This document shows, in pieces, positions 55,878 through 64,000 of a stretch of DNA of 64,000 bases. Source of the DNA: Candidatus Enterousia sp. GTDB lineage: Bacteria; Pseudomonadota; Alphaproteobacteria; Rs-D84. The stretch covers positions 11,794 to 75,793 of the forward strand of contig JAZQGC010000002.1 in the NCBI GenBank assembly GCA_045539815.1, in the 5' to 3' direction. The notes beneath the pieces are model-generated. The model saw nothing but the letters and a program-made list of their open reading frames with translations. It had not been told where the DNA came from and searched no databases. A program made the position numbers and the translations under genes. How positions within the stretch are numbered: the first letter of the stretch is position 1; each line of letters opens with the position of its first letter.

Positions 55878-58800
55878 TCACAATACGCTATCATCATGCA
55901 CCCAATATGGAACCCCCTTGTCAACGATGCGCAAGGCGCGATTTGATTCCGTATTCATTTTTGTTTCTGTTTTGGACATATCGCCATAATATACCACCCC
56001 GTCGACACGCACATGTAACGATGGCGTTGTACGCTTTACTGAACGCAAATACAGTTTATTTTCACCAATATGTAAAATACGTCCGCAATCAGTACTTTCA
56101 TCTGCCCCCTTGCCATATCCGATTGTACGCAACGCATCTTTACACTGATTGCGTCCGACATATTGTAACGACAACTGTTGCAATATATCACCGGCATTGT
56201 TATCTAACTGTCCTTCTGCCGACGGCGACCAGTAACCATCGCCAACCTTGGCACAAGTATTTTCAATCGCATCTTGTGGGCCGGTTGCGACATATACATT
56301 ATTTATCAGATCATTAACATCGGTTATATCTGCGTTATGTGGCGACCAATATCCTGGCCCGCACATCAGTGCGACACCTGTACAATTTGCATCATACAAT
56401 TTTGTCACAGGGTTGTAATCACAGCTGACATAGAATAATCCCCGTTCATTTACCTTGTCATCATATCCTGCATCAACATTTGTATTGTTTTGAAGATCCA
56501 AATACCAACGTTCTGCGTATCCGAACACCGCACGACATTGGTTTGCCGCGGAATGCGGCGCATGTTCCAACGCATCCAACAATTCTGCACTTGCTGCGCC
56601 ATATTTTTCTGTTATTGTCGGACACTTCTCTAATCCTTGGACTTGACCATTATATTCCCAGGCCCCGCCCGTACAGAACGAATCGTCTGGACATTCTGCG
56701 CAAACATCACCATTTAAATAATATCCGGCATCACAAGATATAGAACTGATAGACCATTGTGCAGTCAAATTAATCACCGCATTATTTTCAGCCGTCGCAT
56801 TAACCAAAGACGCCCCAGGTTGAATCACCTTGCCATCGCAACTGCCACCGCTGCACAACCAACCAACAAAATTATAACCAGTCATTACAAACGCATTATT
56901 TTCCGCGACACAGCCACCATCATAGTTACAAACAACATCTGCCATATCACCAGACCCAAGGCCCGCATTATATTTCACAGTAAATGTGTTTGCCACGCAT
57001 GCATTTGTTGTTACGGTTGTGCCACCATTATAATTATATCCCGTGTTACATGTACAGCTTGCCTGACCTGTGGCGCCATTTGTGGACGAATTTGCCGGAC
57101 ACGCATTACACTGTGCGCTGTTTGTTTCTGTCCAAGTATTTGCACCACATGTTGTAATATTGTTATCGGAACATGCAGACCCCGCCGGACAAGTTACACA
57201 TACACCATTGTTCATATAAAGACCAGAATAACAACTGCTGACAGAACACAAATCACAATTTGTATATGCGCCTGTTTCTTCTTCGTACATACAAGACCTG
57301 ACACCTGTTCCTACTTCCGTGGAACACTCAACCACAGGCAACATACACTCTTCAATAGATCCCGCAGTATCTGTCAGCGTTACACCCCCATCCGGACATG
57401 CGTGTGTGATATTTGTGTCAGAAAACATACATTTTTCGGTTTCTTCTTCTGGCAGGCTAACACATTGTTCTGCACCAGCAGACCAATTATTATATCCAAC
57501 AGGAACACATATATTGTTAATAGCTTCTTGTGGATTTGACGCATAAACCATTAAAGACATAACGTCGATATTACCATATTGAACATCCAGAATATCGTTA
57601 TCAAAATTAGAAACGTACCCCGTACCACAAAAAGTTGCATACCCGCGACAATCGCTATCATATTGTTGTGTTGTTGTATTATATTTACAATCTACCACAT
57701 AATATCCTCTATTATTGGCATTCCAATCAAAATCGTCACCATCAATATTTGTCTCTCCAAGATCAGCAAACCATTTTGGAAGATACACAAATAAAGCTCT
57801 ACATTGGTTAACCGACGAATTGCGCGTCTCATCTAAAAGCCCCCCATTGTATGCGCTTGCCGCACCATACTTGTTTGTTACTGCTGGGCAGTCTGTTCTG
57901 CCGTGGATTCCACCGTCATATAACCACTCGCCACCTTCGCAATAATATTCATCTTCGCAGTCGATACAATATAAACCATCCAGATATTGTCCTGCTGGGC
58001 ATGAAATAATTACAGGTTTCCATTGTGCAACAAAAACCAAGCTATCCATATTTACATCCGTCAAATCTGACACAGTTTGCCCATCTGCAAATTTTTCGCC
58101 ATTAAACAGCCAACCATCAAATTCATGTCCCGCTTTATAGAAAGTGTTTTTATTTAAAACACATGATGTACCATATGTGCATGTTGTATCTGTCATACTG
58201 CCATCGCCACCATTTGCATTGTATCTGATGGTGTATGTGATTGGTTCCCATTGTGCATACAAGAACAAACCTGCGCCCTGTGTTGACGATGCATTTTTAA
58301 GGTTTGCACCATCTTCAAAATACTGGCTTTTATCGTAATTTGCCCAATTCTTGAATATGTATCCCGTTTTTGTATATGTGTTTGCGCTAATGTAACAGTC
58401 GGAATTATATGTACATGTTGTGTTTGCCATACTGCCATCGCCACCATTAGATACATATATGACAGTAAATGTATTTGCCGTCCATTGCGCTGTAAATGTA
58501 ACACTGGCACCGTTCGTGCTGGTCAGATTGGTATCAATGGTCGAACCCGACTGATATGTTGTTGAAACATACTGCCATCCAGCAAATGTATAACCAGTTT
58601 TTGTTGGTTTTGTGCTGGATACGGTACAATTTTGACCGTATGTACATATTGTGTCTGCTATACTGCCATCGCCACCGTTTGTATTATACTTAATTGTATA
58701 TGTGTTTGCCACGCATGCATTTGTTGTTACGGTTGTGCCACCATTATAATTATATCCCGTGTTACATGTACAGCTTGCCTGACCCGTGGCACCATTTGTG

Positions 58801-61664
58801 GATGAATTTGTTGGACACGCACTAATAATTCCTGTATCTGTATAATTTACTTTACCACCAGGACACATATTATTCACCGGACAATTTGTCACTGTGTCCG
58901 CACCAGAAATCGCAATATATTTTCCTGATTCAACAGTCATTTGACACTGATTTATCGCCGTCAGCCCTGCACCGCCATCGTCATATCCGTTTGGACATGG
59001 GGTACAAGACACCTTGCCACCAAAATAAGATTCAAATCCTGTCATGTATTGATATTCGCCTGCTGGACACGATGTTATCAGCCCAGAACCAGTGAAAACT
59101 TCTGTCATTTGATCTGTTGCCGTTGTTGTCTTGCTGATACCGGCAAACAAATCGTTCGGAATATCGCCATGAACTTTTGAACAACCATAGAACATTCTTC
59201 TGAACATTCTTGTATTTGGTGTGCCACTGATGCCAGCAAACAAATCTGATGGAATTTCACTGTTTAACGACGAACAGCCTTCGAATGTACTGTTAAACAT
59301 TCTTTCTGTCGGCACACCGTTAAATGTACCAAAGAAATTCGAAGGTATTGTAAAGTTTAATTTAGAACACCCCCAAAACGTATTATTATACATATAATCC
59401 GCTGGGGCCCCACTGATACGTGCAAATAAATCAGATGGCACAGTTTCCAGATTTGAACATCCTGCAAATGTATCCGCAAACATATAACCTGCTGGTTTTC
59501 CATAAATACCGCCAAACAGTCCACTTGGGATTGTTGTCAAACTTTTACATTGTGCAAACGTTGCATTAAACAATGCAGACGCAGGACTGCCGTCTAATCC
59601 ACCAAACAACCCAGCTGGCACAGTCTTCAACGCTGTTCCCTCGAACGTAGATCTAAACATGTTGCTGACAGGCTGACTTGTAATCCCATCAAATAACGTC
59701 GAAGGTATAGATTCCAGATTTGTACTATTATAGAAAGACTGAAAGAAACGCGGTTGTGATCCATTTGACAATGTACCAAATATCGCCCCCAGACTGCCTG
59801 ACAGACTTTTGATATTTGTATTTCCATTAAAAGTGATTGCTGCCATATTTGACGCAGAATTATATTCGGTCGCCTGACCAGAGATACCAATCACATAAGA
59901 TTTTGATCCGATTAATTCATATGTAAAAGATTCTAAATTCGTATTTGTTTTATTGATAACCTTAATAGCAGATCCATCACCTAAATCAACATAAAAAGTC
60001 CCCTTTGCAGTTAATGAAAAAGTAAAAGCTTCAGGATTGTCAACTGTTGTAATTTCAACCTCGGGCACAAATGGTGTACATGCTGTTGTTGTAGTTGTCA
60101 GCGAACCATTTGCCAAATATCCATTTTTACACGTACAATATGATGAACCTGCGGAACTGGTTGAATTTTCTGGACATGTGTAAACACCAAATGTGTCATT
60201 ATATGTCCCGCTGCTGCACCCTGGCACAGAACCACCTGGACAATAAGAACCCGCTGGACACGTTGATACTTCACGATACAACATTGAACGTGATGTATTT
60301 GAAGAACAATAATCATCCAAATAACGCGTCTTCAGATAATACCCCGGATTTACCCTGTACCAATATATAGAACTGGTGGTCATACCATACTTACCCGCGG
60401 ACGAATCATAACGAACGCCTTCATATGTAACATATCCCGCATTTGTTGTAAAACCATATACAGCCGCACATCGATTAATATCAGATAATCCAACATTTAT
60501 CCAAAATGCATATTCGTTTCTGCCGTCATCAAATACATAATCCGATCCCGGCAACACGGTTGGTTTATGTGTACTTGGGTCCGGACATGCGTTTGCGCCA
60601 CCTGTTGAACCATAAGTAACCTTGACACCACCAGGACAATAATTATTTTCTGAACACGTTGTCTGTGCAGAATCATTTGCATTTGCAATATATTTTCCCG
60701 CCGTGGTTGTTACATAGCACTTATTCTGTGCGGTATTCCCTGCGTCTGATGTATATCCTGTTGGACAAGTATACATCAAATGAGTTGCGCCATCGTATGT
60801 TCGTGTTCCCCCCGGACAGTAATATCCGGCCTTACACGTTTCACAGGTTGTTATGTTCAAATATTTTCCCGCAGAACAGGTATAGCTATTTGCAGTCCAT
60901 TGTGCGGTAAATGTAACACTGCCACCATTTGTGCTGGTCAGATTAGATACGGTCGCGCCCGCCTGATATGTTGTTGAACCATACTTCCATCCGGCAAATG
61001 TATAACCAGTCTTTGTTGGTTTTGTGCTGGATACGGTACAGTTTTGTCCGTATGTGCATGTTGTGTCGGATACCGCGCTGCCGCCCGCAGAATCGTATTT
61101 AATTGTGTAAGTATTTGCCGTCCATTGTGCATACAATGTTGCCTGATCATTACCATTGGGATTAGAACCTGTAATCGCCCCGGCACTTGATATTATTTGG
61201 CTGCCACCAGATGCGGCTGTATAAAAACCATTAAATGTATACCCTGTTCTGGTTGGTAATTGTGACGAACTTAACGTAGATATCGTGGTACCGATTGCCG
61301 CTGCAGATGTTGCAGGCGTTCCTGTTGTTTTCTTTAAACTGGTAAACCAGGCAACTCCCTTAACCGTATATAATTGTGCCAATCCACCCGAACCACCATT
61401 TGGGTTTAATGTAACCTTGTATGCCGGTGCATATGTGCCCCCAGGACAGAATTCTGCACGTGGCGCATAATCCGTACAAGAAGAACATATATTTCCAGTT
61501 GTTGGTGTACCATTATAAGCACCGTTATACCTCATAAAAAACCCAGCTCCACATGAAGTATATTTTACGGCAGAGTCACAAACATAGCCGGCCGCATAAA
61601 CATTTGCTGCCAACCCAAAGAACATCAAAAAAACCGTAAAAAGCCCAACAAATACGCGCTTCAA
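55878..61664 (-). CDS. giant (1928 aa) mosaic surface protein: Listeria-Bacteroides (Flg_new) repeats, BspA/DUF285-like LRRs, ephrin-receptor/VSP-like Cys repeats, TTPSL-type C-terminal domain
   Basis: Uninterrupted 5.8 kb ORF. Signal peptide MKRVFVGLFTVFLMFFGLAANVYA. Flg_new units end TGYTFAGW...TAQWTAN. There are about 24-aa F..TF.GC..L...IPS.LF repeats around 59100-59720. CxxGxY...CxxCxxGYYCPGG motifs occur throughout. Confidence 0.85.
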   Translation of the reverse strand: MKRVFVGLFTVFLMFFGLAANVYAAGYVCDSAVKYTSCGAGFFMRYNGAYNGTPTTGNICSSCTDYAPRAEFCPGGTYAPAYKVTLNPNGGSGGLAQLYTVKGVAWFTSLKKTTGTPATSAAAIGTTISTLSSSQLPTRTGYTFNGFYTAASGGSQIISSAGAITGSNPNGNDQATLYAQWTANTYTIKYDSAGGSAVSDTTCTYGQNCTVSSTKPTKTGYTFAGWKYGSTTYQAGATVSNLTSTNGGSVTFTAQWTANSYTCSAGKYLNITTCETCKAGYYCPGGTRTYDGATHLMYTCPTGYTSDAGNTAQNKCYVTTTAGKYIANANDSAQTTCSENNYCPGGVKVTYGSTGGANACPDPSTHKPTVLPGSDYVFDDGRNEYAFWINVGLSDINRCAAVYGFTTNAGYVTYEGVRYDSSAGKYGMTTSSIYWYRVNPGYYLKTRYLDDYCSSNTSRSMLYREVSTCPAGSYCPGGSVPGCSSGTYNDTFGVYTCPENSTSSAGSSYCTCKNGYLANGSLTTTTTACTPFVPEVEITTVDNPEAFTFSLTAKGTFYVDLGDGSAIKVINKTNTNLESFTYELIGSKSYVIGISGQATEYNSASNMAAITFNGNTNIKSLSGSLGAIFGTLSNGSQPRFFQSFYNSTNLESIPSTLFDGITSQPVSNMFRSTFEGTALKTVPAGLFGGLDGSPASALFNATFAQCKSLTTIPSGLFGGIYGKPAGYMFADTFAGCSNLETVPSDLFARISGAPADYMYNNTFWGCSKLNFTIPSNFFGTFNGVPTERMFNSTFEGCSSLNSEIPSDLFAGISGTPNTRMFRRMFYGCSKVHGDIPNDLFAGISKTTTATDQMTEVFTGSGLITSCPAGEYQYMTGFESYFGGKVSCTPCPNGYDDGGAGLTAINQCQMTVESGKYIAISGADTVTNCPVNNMCPGGKVNYTDTGIISACPTNSSTNGATGQASCTCNTGYNYNGGTTVTTNACVANTYTIKYNTNGGDGSIADTICTYGQNCTVSSTKPTKTGYTFAGWQYVSTTYQSGSTIDTNLTSTNGASVTFTAQWTANTFTVIYVSNGGDGSMANTTCTYNSDCYISANTYTKTGYIFKNWANYDKSQYFEDGANLKNASSTQGAGLFLYAQWEPITYTIRYNANGGDGSMTDTTCTYGTSCVLNKNTFYKAGHEFDGWLFNGEKFADGQTVSDLTDVNMDSLVFVAQWKPVIISCPAGQYLDGLYCIDCEDEYYCEGGEWLYDGGIHGRTDCPAVTNKYGAASAYNGGLLDETRNSSVNQCRALFVYLPKWFADLGETNIDGDDFDWNANNRGYYVVDCKYNTTTQQYDSDCRGYATFCGTGYVSNFDNDILDVQYGNIDVMSLMVYASNPQEAINNICVPVGYNNWSAGAEQCVSLPEEETEKCMFSDTNITHACPDGGVTLTDTAGSIEECMLPVVECSTEVGTGVRSCMYEEETGAYTNCDLCSVSSCYSGLYMNNGVCVTCPAGSACSDNNITTCGANTWTETNSAQCNACPANSSTNGATGQASCTCNTGYNYNGGTTVTTNACVANTFTVKYNAGLGSGDMADVVCNYDGGCVAENNAFVMTGYNFVGWLCSGGSCDGKVIQPGASLVNATAENNAVINLTAQWSISSISCDAGYYLNGDVCAECPDDSFCTGGAWEYNGQVQGLEKCPTITEKYGAASAELLDALEHAPHSAANQCRAVFGYAERWYLDLQNNTNVDAGYDDKVNERGLFYVSCDYNPVTKLYDANCTGVALMCGPGYWSPHNADITDVNDLINNVYVATGPQDAIENTCAKVGDGYWSPSAEGQLDNNAGDILQQLSLQYVGRNQCKDALRTIGYGKGADESTDCGRILHIGENKLYLRSVKRTTPSLHVRVDGVVYYGDMSKTETKMNTESNRALRIVDKGVPYWVHDDSVL
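56985..57104. repeat. intragenic 120 bp near-identical direct repeat, copy 1
   Basis: Differs from 58701-58820 at only about 5 positions. Encodes CP(A/T)NSSTNGATGQASCTCNTGYNYNGGTTVTTNACVANT. Confidence 0.85.
58701..58820. repeat. intragenic 120 bp near-identical direct repeat, copy 2
   Basis: See the 56985-57104 entry. Confidence 0.85.
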
Positions 61665-61784: not shown

Positions 61785-62447
61785 TTATGCGCCTTTGAAC
61801 CCTGTTGCGACAATAAACATCTCGACGCTATCCTTGCGCGAAGAAGGCGGTTTTATATGATGAACAGATTCAAATTTTTCCTTGATTTGCTTTAATAATT
61901 CATTTGTTGTTCCGCCGGTAAAAGACTTGCAAACAAAGGTTCCGCCAACCTTTAACGCGCGCAACGCGAAATCAAATGCATATTCCAACAAAACCATTTG
62001 GCGGATATGGTCTGTTTTCTTGTGTCCGACTGTATTTGGTGCCATATCAGAAACAATTACATCCGCGGTCCCTGCACCAACTTCGTCATGAGATAAGCCC
62101 AATTTTTCTTCCAGCCAGCGCAGTGCCGCATCCGTGGTAAAGTCCCCCTGATAAGTTTCAACACCAACAATCGGCGATATTTCCAATAAATCCATTGCAA
62201 AAATCTTGGATTTTGGGTAAGTACGCGCAATATATTGCGACCATGACCCTGGCGCTGCACCCAAATCAACAACAACCTGGCCGTTTCGCAAGAATTTGAA
62301 CTTTTCGTTCATTTCTATTAATTTATATGCGGCACGCGCACGATATCCATCCTTGTGCGCACGTGCGACATATGGATCTGCGGCCTGACGTTGCAACCAC
62401 GCGACCGAAGATTTTTTGCTGGCAATTTTTTTATTGGTTATCTTCAT
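61785..62447 (-). CDS. rlmE: 23S rRNA U2552 2'-O-methyltransferase RlmE/FtsJ
   Basis: YRARAAYKLIE, VVDLGAAPGSWSQ and DVIVSDMAPN motifs. Confidence 0.9.
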   Translation of the reverse strand: MKITNKKIASKKSSVAWLQRQAADPYVARAHKDGYRARAAYKLIEMNEKFKFLRNGQVVVDLGAAPGSWSQYIARTYPKSKIFAMDLLEISPIVGVETYQGDFTTDAALRWLEEKLGLSHDEVGAGTADVIVSDMAPNTVGHKKTDHIRQMVLLEYAFDFALRALKVGGTFVCKSFTGGTTNELLKQIKEKFESVHHIKPPSSRKDSVEMFIVATGFKGA

Positions 62448-62956
62448 TTAGATTTGCTTTGCATTTGTTTACATTTTTTATTATAAAAATCCATTGCACG
62501 ATCATGTGCATATTGTGAATTAAACAACGCAAAATGATCCATATCATGCGAAAAGAAGAATGTTTTACGCTGATTATTCTTGTATGTTACAACCACTTTA
62601 TACCCCAAGAAACGTTTTTGTTTTGGTGCATATACAAAAAAATCTGGCTCTGGCTTTTGGACATCAACCGGTGTATAATCGAAACGTTGTTTCAGATTAT
62701 GCGCCATATTATAAAACCAATTTCCATGAACACGCCACAGACAAGAATCTGCCAACCACAACGGCCCCGGCATTTTTTGCAACCTGCGTCCAACCGCGGG
62801 TGTTCCGTCAATTCTATCCTGGGGCACACTGTTTATCCACATAACAGATTCGCCCGAATTATTGGCAACTGTTAAATTATAAAACACAGACATATGCCCA
62901 TTGGCATCTGGTTTTGTTATTTTTTTTACTTCAATAATACGATTGTATTTTTCCAT
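62444..62956 (-). CDS. hypothetical protein
   Basis: 170 aa ORF. Its stop overlaps the rlmE start (4 nt). No recognisable domain. Confidence 0.5.
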   Translation of the reverse strand: MEKYNRIIEVKKITKPDANGHMSVFYNLTVANNSGESVMWINSVPQDRIDGTPAVGRRLQKMPGPLWLADSCLWRVHGNWFYNMAHNLKQRFDYTPVDVQKPEPDFFVYAPKQKRFLGYKVVVTYKNNQRKTFFFSHDMDHFALFNSQYAHDRAMDFYNKKCKQMQSKSK

Positions 62957-63062: not shown

Positions 63063-63572
63063 CTATTTTGCGCCTGGGAAACCACCCTGTTGCATTTTCT
63101 GCATAACAGCTTCCATTCCACCCATACGTTGAATCATCGCCATCTGTTGTTTCATTTTTGTGTATTGTTTGATGATATGTTCAACATCACGAACGGTACA
63201 CCCAGCCGTTTCTGCAATACGCGCCTTGGCATTTGCAAATATTTTTTCTGGTTCTGCGCGTTCTGCGGGCGTCATTGCTTCTAACAGTTTAATCTGACTG
63301 TCAACACTGCCGTCTTTGATTTTTTCCTTCATTGCATTAACAGCGCCACTCATACCCGGCACCATCTTCAACAACCCGCTAAAATTACTCATTTTTTTAA
63401 TCTGTTTCAGCTGTGCCAACATATCATTCATATCAAACTGTCCAGACATCATGCGTTGTGCAGTTTCCTTCATCCCCGATGGTATTTTATCGGCTGTCAA
63501 ATCCTTATCAGCCCCAGCGACATTATTATTTTCAACAACTTTTTGTTCTTTCTTTTTACCAAATCCAAACAT
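63063..63572 (-). CDS. free-standing SRP54/Ffh M-domain protein (no NG GTPase domain)
   Basis: FDMNDMLAQLKQIKKMSNFSGLLKMVPGMSG...MTPAERAEPEKI...RIAETAGCTVRDVEHIIKQYTKMKQQM aligns by eye to the E. coli Ffh M domain. The gene starts 17 nt after the uvrA stop. Confidence 0.7.
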   Translation of the reverse strand: MFGFGKKKEQKVVENNNVAGADKDLTADKIPSGMKETAQRMMSGQFDMNDMLAQLKQIKKMSNFSGLLKMVPGMSGAVNAMKEKIKDGSVDSQIKLLEAMTPAERAEPEKIFANAKARIAETAGCTVRDVEHIIKQYTKMKQQMAMIQRMGGMEAVMQKMQQGGFPGAK

Positions 63573-63589
63573 ACCTACTCCTTTTTGTA

Positions 63590-64000
63590 CTATTTTTTTA
63601 TTTTATTTATTTTTACTGTTTTGTCCAGATACTTATGCAAATATTTTCCTGTTTTTGATTCTGGCACCTGTACAATATCTTCTGGGGTACCTGCTGCAAT
63701 CAGTTGTCCACCACCGGCGCCACCTGTGGGTCCTAAATCAATAACCCAATCGGCTGTTTTTATAACTTCTAAATTATGTTCAATTACAATAACAGTATTT
63801 CCCTGATCCACCAATTCGTGCAACACAGACAGCAAAGATTTTATATCTTCAAAGTGCAATCCGGTTGTGGGTTCATCCAATATATATATTGTTTCCCCTG
63901 TACTGCGCGCGGCCAATTCTTTGGACAATTTTATACGCTGTGCTTCACCACCTGACAGATCCAACGAACTTTGTCCCAGCTTTATATAATCCAGTCCAAC
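63590..64000 (-). CDS. uvrA: excinuclease ABC subunit UvrA, C-terminal end (gene continues beyond the window)
   Basis: [54 protein letters not shown]. The frame stays open to position 64000. Confidence 0.95.

Follow-up and report, generated by a model that had tools for sequence, protein, structure and literature searches.

The window analysed here is a stretch of 64,000 nucleotides (nt) from contig JAZQGC010000002.1 of Candidatus Enterousia sp., an uncultured alphaproteobacterium of gut and rumen, which belongs to the order Rs-D84 and has genomes of ~0.9 Mb (PMC12306168). On its reverse strand, the end of uvrA is followed by an open reading frame (ORF) for a protein of 169 amino acids (aa), and further downstream by rlmE (Table 1). 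The small protein consists essentially of the M domain of Ffh, which together with SRP RNA and the receptor FtsY makes up the signal recognition particle (SRP) system, regarded as conserved in all living organisms (PMC7844537). The gene is an ffh from which the N and G domains were removed in place, and it occurs in a clade that has lost the NG GTPase domain, FtsY and the 4.5S RNA; these genomic statements, the truncation in place and the clade-wide losses, can be regarded as nearly certain.

The M-domain identity of the ORF is far beyond chance. Residues 45-144 of the protein cover positions 1-91 of the 91-position Pfam profile SRP_SPB (PF02978; E 1.1e-22, 80.7 bits against a cut-off of 27), whereas the NCBIfam model for complete Ffh, TIGR00959, is matched at positions 315-427 of 428 only (86 bits against a cut-off of 473). 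Neither an N domain nor an SRP54-type G domain (PF02881/PF00448) was found in the ORF, the TIGR00959 match being confined to the C-terminal part. A reading made from the letters alone (the sequence-only reading) had described a stand-alone M domain without NG and had quoted a series of Ffh motifs in its support; the domain assignment stands, and all of these motifs were reproduced by a residue-level alignment with the M domain of Escherichia coli Ffh (PDB 5aka, 1dul, 2pxb; E ~1e-15). The same alignment places NAKARIAETAG of the Enterousia protein opposite GSRKRRIAAGSG of E. coli Ffh and thus bears out the degenerate RNA-binding motif that had been suspected there. Annotation pipelines label the protein as 'hypothetical' or 'SRP54'.

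The predicted structure agrees with this assignment. An AlphaFold2 model shows a helical M domain, with a predicted local distance difference test score (pLDDT) of ~85 in the core and a mean of 65, and with predicted helices at residues 32-43, 48-63, 75-86, 89-99, 102-106, 113-123 and 127-149. When the model was searched with Foldseek, a probability of 1.00 was reached solely by Ffh/SRP54 M domains, with 5aka and 1hq1 as best matches (target TM 0.87); two mitoribosomal proteins that consist of an M domain only were also matched, 6z1p_AT (0.97) and 9i05_AI (0.66).

The start of the ORF lies 17 nt past the uvrA stop codon, and there is no adjacent 5' fragment of ffh, as the sequence-only reading had pointed out. 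Scans for promoters and terminators around the gene returned no more sites than shuffled sequence.

Table 1. Features of the uvrA-rlmE region, in coordinates of the window
Feature	Coordinates	Strand	Basis or remark
3' end of uvrA, conserved upstream neighbour of ffh in the family	63590..64000 (leaves window)	(-)	stop codon 63590-63592
uvrA-to-ORF spacer, 17 nt, reads TACAAAAAGGAGTAGGT	63573..63589	(-)	
Shine-Dalgarno sequence AAGGAG, strong	63578-63583	(-)	5 nt before ATG
M-domain-only Ffh derivative (169 aa)	63063..63572 (stop codon included)	(-)	Pfam/NCBIfam, alignment, synteny, phylogeny; ATG start at 63572
N-terminal tag MFGFGKKK, codons 1-8 (aromatic/Gly, then lysine run)	63549..63572	(-)	dN/dS 0.03
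Hypervariable acidic spacer, codons 9-29	63486..63548	(-)	dN/dS 0.69, pLDDT <50
GM-linker helix remnant and M domain, codons 30-145	63138..63485	(-)	dN/dS 0.034
Altered SRP-RNA-binding motifs AMTPAERAEPEKIFANAKARIAETAGC, codons 99-125	63198..63278	(-)	motif comparison, charge
Met/Gln-rich C-terminal tail ending QRMGGMEAVMQKMQQGGFPGAK, codons 146-169	63066..63137	(-)	dN/dS 0.13
rlmE (FtsJ-type 23S rRNA methyltransferase), conserved downstream neighbour of ffh in the family	61785..62447	(-)	Pfam FtsJ, E 2.5e-57

Selection on the gene was analysed with 74 Enterousia orthologs in addition to the window gene, at a synonymous divergence (dS) of ~1.7. The ratio of non-synonymous to synonymous substitution rates (dN/dS) is 0.07 over the whole ORF, and the contrasts between its regions (Table 1) divide the protein into four parts, namely a tag, a spacer, the M domain and a tail. 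The N-terminal tag is almost invariant across the 74 orthologs, unique in the proteome and disordered according to AlphaFold2; variants in related genera with the same kind of short gene (hereafter the M-only genera) read MFGLGKKK, MAFLGFGKKK, MAWFGRSKK and MAWFSKKKK. It is followed by a spacer, which ranges from 11 to 28 residues among orthologs, has a mean net charge of -3.2 and is likewise predicted to be disordered. Codons 30-145 comprise helix M1, the finger loop, the signal-sequence groove and the helix-turn-helix that formerly bound RNA. In the tail, a core of MGGM is invariant among the Enterousia orthologs; the equivalent flexible C-terminus of Ffh enters the ribosomal tunnel and touches uL23 (PMC8082313). 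Taken together, the substitution patterns indicate strong purifying selection on the M-only gene and retention of its signal-binding features.

The possibility that the tag is homologous to the membrane-targeting helix at the N-terminus of FtsY was considered and rejected. The FtsY proteins of a sister order start with MFGNLGKKL or MLGIFGKKL, but those closest to the clade, from its own family, start with MGIFSKISSLFTGKK; as the likeness is one of composition only, no homology is claimed.

The second element of the finding is what is missing from the genome. The assembly that contains the window (947 kb in 43 contigs, scored as 98% complete) yields exactly one SRP_SPB match in a six-frame search, which is this ORF, and no full-length ffh. 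No PF00448 match rises above the cut-off in this genome, the best one (15.9 bits) being Der/EngA according to Pfam, and on this basis it has no NG part of Ffh, no receptor FtsY and no FlhF. A tblastn search of the genome with 12 Ffh and 7 FtsY sequences of relatives returned the M domain (E 1e-23 to 1e-28) and, beyond it, nothing but P-loop noise. The RNA component was not found either: the Rfam model of the bacterial small SRP RNA, RF00169, has no match at E<=1 in the window genome, and a search with an nhmmer profile of eight sister-family 4.5S RNAs gave a best E of 3.3, compared with 1e-18 to 1e-28 for controls. A regular expression for 4.5S domain IV matched 0/8 positive controls and was discarded, so that nhmmer and Rfam are the valid tests.

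The same picture extends to related genomes. An open frame that holds an M domain and is 150-195 aa long is present in 23/24 genus-mates, and none of the 24 has an SRP GTPase domain or an RF00169 match at E<=0.1. In sister families of the order, by comparison, the M domain is part of an Ffh of 440-489 aa, FtsY has ~295 aa, and the 4.5S RNA was found by RF00169 in 13/16 genomes. Within the family itself, 123 of 151 sampled genomes lack the GTPase domain, namely those of Enterousia (109) and of the genera labelled g12, g17, g19, g20, g24 and g26; all of these genera bear a short stand-alone M-domain frame, whereas ten other genera of the family retain Ffh and FtsY. The frame is intact in 147/151 family genomes. 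PF00448 was also not found in the circular chromosome OZ007020.1 (958,618 bp), and RF00169 has no match at E<=1 in this chromosome, in two single-contig genomes and in two two-contig genomes. FtsY was detected neither by hidden Markov model (HMM) search or tblastn in the window genome nor by HMM search in the genus-mates or the closed chromosome. Since closed and near-closed chromosomes lack the SRP parts as well, incompleteness of metagenome-assembled genomes (MAGs) cannot explain the loss. With NG domain, FtsY and 4.5S RNA gone, this clade no longer has an SRP targeting cycle driven by GTPases.

Neither of the explanations that the sequence-only reading had offered holds in the form given. 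A split or relocated ffh is contradicted, because no NG gene is present in the window genome, in ~130 further genomes from its clade or in chromosomes that are closed, and because the gene sits at its ancestral position between uvrA and rlmE; the search proposed at the time, for a full-length ffh and for an orphan NG-domain gene, found neither. The accompanying rule, that a genome without full-length ffh would merely have split an essential gene, fails as well, given that FtsY and 4.5S RNA are missing, too. Of the other proposal, a neofunctionalised signal-peptide-binding paralog, the remodelled signal-peptide-binding protein is retained here and the paralog is not: no full-length ffh exists in the genome, and therefore the M-only protein is not a paralog.

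At the ftsY locus, no clean deletion scar was seen. The genes that flank ftsY in relatives are located mid-contig on two contigs of the window genome, which means that the locus has been rearranged. As a separate observation, ffh is broken in two genomes of the SRP-positive genus g15: in one (G063:C11:19787-20087) the M domain is split over frames of 411 aa and 66 aa, and in the other (G086:C8) the ffh frame holds an internal TAG. Sequencing errors could account for this; alternatively, ffh may have begun to decay independently in this neighbouring genus.

Gene order and phylogeny both place the origin of the M-only gene at the ffh locus. The order uvrA, ffh (439-489 aa), rlmE is seen in eight genera of the family that retain SRP, with small ORFs inserted in some and with uvrA directly abutting ffh in two of the eight genomes; in the M-only genera, the order is uvrA, M-only gene, rlmE. 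As relatives share the arrangement uvrA-ffh-rlmE, the window gene is the ffh ortholog at the ancestral locus. Maximum-likelihood analysis of M domains groups all of the M-only proteins in the sample, 23 in number, into a single clade (support 100/100), which is sister to six Ffh sequences of the family (96/82); a phylogenetic placement had been called for by the sequence-only reading, and it puts the protein next to genuine Ffh of its own family. The stem branch of the clade is long, at 1.3 substitutions per site, and branches within the clade are short. A single clade with a long stem and short internal branches implies one event, followed by rapid remodelling and then stasis. The window gene is thus, by descent and by locus, an ffh ortholog with the N and G domains deleted in place, and a single such deletion took place in an ancestor that at least seven genera share with one divergent lineage.

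The divergent lineage came to light in a phmmer search, which was exhaustive over 1.84 billion representative proteins and in which the M-only clade itself appears as one full-length representative plus fragments. The only genuine divergent relative among the short matches is P0128, a protein of 138 aa with 45% identity, the tag MGLFGKKK and a very short spacer. Its gene occupies positions 259-675 of a 2625-nt contig from a different metagenome (L195; ENA ERZ23486243) and begins 13 nt after uvrA; downstream of it lies, in convergent orientation, rpsP, the gene for ribosomal protein S16. rpsP is a classic neighbour of ffh. Stand-alone M domains behind uvrA, for which the sequence-only reading had proposed to check related genomes, therefore occur both in the M-only genera and on this contig, and the find suggests that the M-only clade reaches beyond gut genera. 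Nearly all other stand-alone M domains among the phmmer matches were rejected as candidates, because they start at the Met of the LGMGD hinge and have canonical SMT and GSG motifs. Eight of them, P0158, P0193, P0204, P0206, P0209, P0234, P0236 and P0237, have ~150-210 aa and start with MGD(V/I).. or MAGRILGMGD.., at the LGMGD hinge or shortly ahead of it; such entries of public catalogues are contig-edge or wrong-start fragments of normal ffh, which can be mistaken for stand-alone M domains.

How the new start arose may be reflected in an alignment made with MAFFT, in which MFGFG is placed against ILGMGD, the hinge that closes the G domain and is universally conserved. This hinge precedes FDxND by exactly 32 residues in 20/20 Ffh sequences, and the M-only start precedes it by 28-56 residues. 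Possibly, an in-frame deletion joined the native Met-Phe to the G-M-G-D of the LGMGD hinge, which would give MFGMGD, close to the MFGFGK that is observed, and would leave the old translation signals in place. An internal deletion of N and G has also been proposed for the origin of the mitochondrial protein MAP67 by Pyrih et al. (PMC8321541).

Between the M-only gene and rlmE, the window contains a further ORF of 170 aa (62444-62956, reverse strand), with an overlap of 4 nt between its stop and the start of rlmE. Neither Pfam nor NCBIfam has a match for it. The insertion is specific to Enterousia, being present neither in the other M-only genera nor in relatives with SRP, and its sequence changes rapidly, with tblastn matches in only 21/98 loci searched (80 of the 98 from Enterousia), at 24-41% identity.

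The residues that changed and those that did not are informative about what the protein may still do. Compared with Ffh of 20 SRP-positive relatives, helix M1 and the finger loop are the most conserved part, with 61% identity to the consensus of the relatives' Ffh, and the Met content of 11.4% compares with 9.6-11.3% in Ffh M domains. In Ffh, it is helix M1, the finger loop and Met-rich elements that form the groove for signal anchors (PMC8082313). The RNA-binding helix-turn-helix tells a different story. The 20 sequences of the relatives and that of E. coli read SMT..ER.(basic)P...(S/A)RK.RIA.G(S/A)G, where the M-only protein has AMTPAER and NAKARIAETAG instead, so that the conserved form of the motifs by which Ffh binds RNA is not preserved in it. 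Three changes are fixed: in SMT the S has become A, in (S/A)RK the R has become A, and in G(S/A)G a T stands for the first G. Before the Pro, an acidic residue has taken the place of a basic one, and the residues replaced in the helix-turn-helix are invariant in all relatives that bear an SRP RNA. The net charge of a 38-residue segment is 0.0 in the M-only protein, compared with +3.5 and +5.3 in relatives from the family and the order, respectively, that have an SRP RNA. Eight diagnostic substitutions are fixed throughout the M-only clade. Judging from these residues and from the demonstrable loss of charge, RNA binding appears to have been given up by the M-only protein. Mutations in the same two M-domain motifs are reported for the SRP54 proteins of plastids and mitochondria that work without RNA (PMC8321541).

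The machinery to which SRP delivers its clients is still there. The window genome retains SecA (870 aa, with SEC-C motif), SecY, SecD, signal peptidase I (LepB) and a single YidC of 521 aa, which ends in ...IKRNNK and whose short C-terminus is not longer than in SRP-positive sisters. A crude hydropathy scan predicts 135 proteins with at least two transmembrane segments, 60 with at least four and 34 with at least six, and a 1008-aa pump of the AcrB type is among the predicted polytopic proteins. SRP clients and translocon are thus present, and the targeting cycle alone is gone. Trigger factor and SecB gave no match among ten heuristically picked candidates that were scanned. Simple motif searches of the predicted proteome, for which the regular expressions were possibly too strict, found signatures of DnaK and peptide deformylase and none of ClpX, ClpP or Lon.

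Based on these features, the M-only protein probably still binds hydrophobic signal anchors in its methionine-rich groove and would act, independently of GTP and RNA, at the exit of the ribosomal tunnel, where it would dock by means of the M domain and the conserved C-terminal tail. Nascent membrane proteins would be captured in this position and then be handed over to SecYEG/YidC. The tag, with its aromatic residues and lysines on a floppy acidic spacer, could serve as a tether to anionic lipids, to the translocon or insertase (SecYEG/YidC/SecA), or to the ribosome/rRNA; short lipid-binding elements are known to mediate the membrane attachment of FtsY (PMC8082313). As an overall reading, we propose that the in-place-truncated ffh encodes a GTP- and RNA-independent binder of signal anchors at the ribosome exit, comparable to the mitochondrial proteins mL105/MAP67, with a probability of roughly 0.6. 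For the mechanism of a ribosome-exit adaptor as such, the odds look about even. The more far-reaching idea, that a bacterial clade has swapped the SRP cycle for a minimal, constitutive exit-site adaptor tethered by its tag to the membrane or translocon, is put forward tentatively, at slightly less than an even chance.

Several points weigh against this proposal. The main ribosome anchor of bacterial SRP, which contacts uL23/uL29, is the NG domain (PMC8082313), and as this anchor is absent, docking by the M domain alone may be weak. SecA can bind ribosomes and target membrane proteins itself, so that the leading part in targeting may not fall to the M-only protein. YidC was examined for a C-terminal extension that could compensate by binding the ribosome, in the style of YidC2/Oxa1, and has none. 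The role ascribed to the tag is a guess, given that it concerns eight residues, which are predicted to be disordered and bear a loose likeness to FtsY. Moreover, the altered motif FANAKxRIAE is itself nearly invariant across M-only proteins, which means that the former RNA-binding surface has been fixed anew and may serve a new partner. Finally, all genomes are MAGs of uncultured organisms.

Other explanations account for parts of the evidence. The M domain could be a soluble holdase, which binds hydrophobic segments late in translation or after it in the cytosol and passes them on to SecA/YidC, without stable association with the ribosome. Such an activity would be in line with the retained signal-sequence groove and Met richness, with the presence of a SecA that has a SEC-C motif, and with the loss of the NG domain and its usual contact to uL23/uL29, and there is a precedent in cpSRP54, which is active in post-translational transport in chloroplasts (PMC5115805). 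However, the C-terminal tail, which enters the tunnel in Ffh, is conserved, the closest architectural analogue, mL105, is bound to the ribosome, and a conserved tag on a flexible spacer resembles a tether more than a feature of a free chaperone, which makes the holdase unlikely. Still less probable is a role outside of targeting altogether, in which the M fold would be a scaffold and the remodelled helix-turn-helix would bind a new partner, either RNA or protein. A long stem branch (1.3 substitutions per site) with subsequent stasis, eight diagnostic substitutions fixed clade-wide and a motif, FANAKxRIAE, that is nearly invariant rather than decaying could be expected from such repurposing. 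But the regions that remain most Ffh-like are the signal-binding ones, helix M1 and the finger loop, the Met content is unchanged, the positive charge for binding RNA has been lost, and the membrane proteome with Sec/YidC still requires aid in targeting.

Two further possibilities question the finding itself rather than its interpretation. Most of the genomes are MAGs, and the genes flanking ftsY in relatives sit on different contigs in the window genome; the SRP GTPases and RNA might therefore be too divergent to be detected or reside on an unassembled or unbinned replicon, with the ORF being half of a split, complete SRP. This is very improbable in view of the consistent absence over ~130 genomes, single-contig genomes and closed chromosomes included, and of the failure of tblastn with lineage-specific queries to find anything. 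Relatives from the same family match at E 1e-60 to 1e-74, so that there is no gradient of divergence that would lead up to unrecognizable genes. The ftsY-flanking genes, moreover, are found mid-contig and not at contig ends, and the altered RNA motifs of the M domain fit an RNA partner that is absent. Lastly, as the shortened form of an essential gene, in a lineage that is reducing its genome (PMC12306168), the ORF could be a functionless remnant, a pseudogene in progress, yet the selection analysis effectively refutes this: dN/dS is 0.03 at dS ~1.7 over 74 species, the frame is intact in 147/151 family genomes, start codon, Shine-Dalgarno sequence and tag are conserved, and the gene persists in seven or more genera as well as in a lineage with 45% identity.

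For the preferred reading, a probable signal-anchor binder at the ribosome exit, the nearest counterpart is mitochondrial. mL105, known from the mitoribosomes of Tetrahymena (PDB 6z1p chain AT) and Polytomella, has no NG domain, occupies the position of the Ffh M domain at the tunnel exit and touches the insertase (PMC7326499; PMC9576764). The Enterousia protein resembles MAP67/mL105 in architecture, both being Ffh M domains that lack the N and G domains and belong to systems with no SRP RNA, and its source lineage is alphaproteobacterial, as was the mitochondrial ancestor; its similarity to 6z1p_AT is weak in sequence (E 4.6e-4), and the folds match with a probability of 0.97. The two do not descend from a common M-only ancestor, though: the Enterousia protein matches the M domain of E. 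coli Ffh at E ~1e-15 and nests within the Ffh of Rs-D84, and being closer to bacterial Ffh it must have originated independently of MAP67, by convergence. It also differs in its chromosomal location at the ffh locus, in having no presequence and a distinct N-terminal tag, and in its length of ~170 aa versus ~300 aa. Moreover, MAP67 is believed to go back to a second gene copy existing alongside mtFfh, whereas in Enterousia the sole copy of ffh has been truncated. And while mL105 is ribosome-bound, what is known for the Enterousia protein is the conservation of the C-terminal tail and of the M fold.

Canonical Ffh (TIGR00959), which acts in E. coli with 4.5S RNA and FtsY, is the ortholog of the M-only protein and shares its M fold, finger loop, Met-rich groove and tail; the M-only protein differs in having no N and G domains, GTPase, receptor or RNA, and in its altered motifs and neutralised charge. 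cpSRP54 and mtFfh, which function without RNA, show that the loss of SRP RNA is accompanied by mutations in the two RNA-binding motifs (PMC8321541), as in Enterousia. Unlike the M-only clade, however, they keep the NG GTPase and an FtsY-type receptor, both of which are gone in Enterousia, and the cpSRP54 type of solution is thus not what is found here. Life without the SRP cycle is possible in ffh/ftsY mutants of Streptococcus mutans with YidC2 and in suppressors of SRP deletion in E. coli (PMC8546722; PMC7844537), and Carsonella and Portiera, insect endosymbionts with genomes of less than ~0.3 Mb, have neither ffh nor ftsY (PMC4122945). These cases are laboratory deletions or extreme endosymbionts in which the whole gene was lost, whereas in Enterousia, a lineage of ~0.9 Mb with SecA/SecYEG/YidC, the loss has become fixed naturally and the M domain has been kept. 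The single YidC of Enterousia, furthermore, has no ribosome-binding C-terminal tail.

The components of SRP count among the standard core genes, and even an insect symbiont with a genome of 357 kb retains ffh and ftsY (PMC4122945). That a widespread gut and rumen clade with genomes of ~0.9 Mb has naturally lost the GTPase/RNA cycle, and has kept the signal-binding domain under very strong selection, bears on how membrane proteins can be targeted co-translationally without a GTPase switch and on what the M domain is capable of alone. It also bears on the passage of mitochondria from a bacterial SRP to the ribosome-bound mL105/MAP67. As the deletion of N and G can be observed here with intermediate relatives still alive, this transition becomes open to comparison and biochemistry. 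If the proposal is true, living Alphaproteobacteria would independently repeat the route by which mitochondria dismantled SRP while retaining mL105/MAP67. In practical terms, ffh, ftsY and ffs, which serve as universal markers of genome completeness and phylogeny, are absent in the M-only clade. A search of the accessible literature turned up neither an M-only Ffh from bacteria nor a report that Enterousia has lost SRP, and the Enterousia genome paper (PMC12306168) makes no mention of SRP, ffh or ftsY.

Two other genes were noted in passing. Elsewhere in the window genome (G000:C9:16602-18623; L161), a protein of 673 aa combines an N-terminal YbeY endoribonuclease domain with apolipoprotein N-acyltransferase (Lnt) domains, a combination that looks unusual and may represent a fused ybeY-lnt gene pair. 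Within the window itself, positions 55878-61664 of the reverse strand contain an ORF of 1928 aa with an N-terminal segment that resembles a signal peptide, many Cys-rich modules and repeated units of the type 'TGYTF.GW', which is probably a giant exported surface protein.

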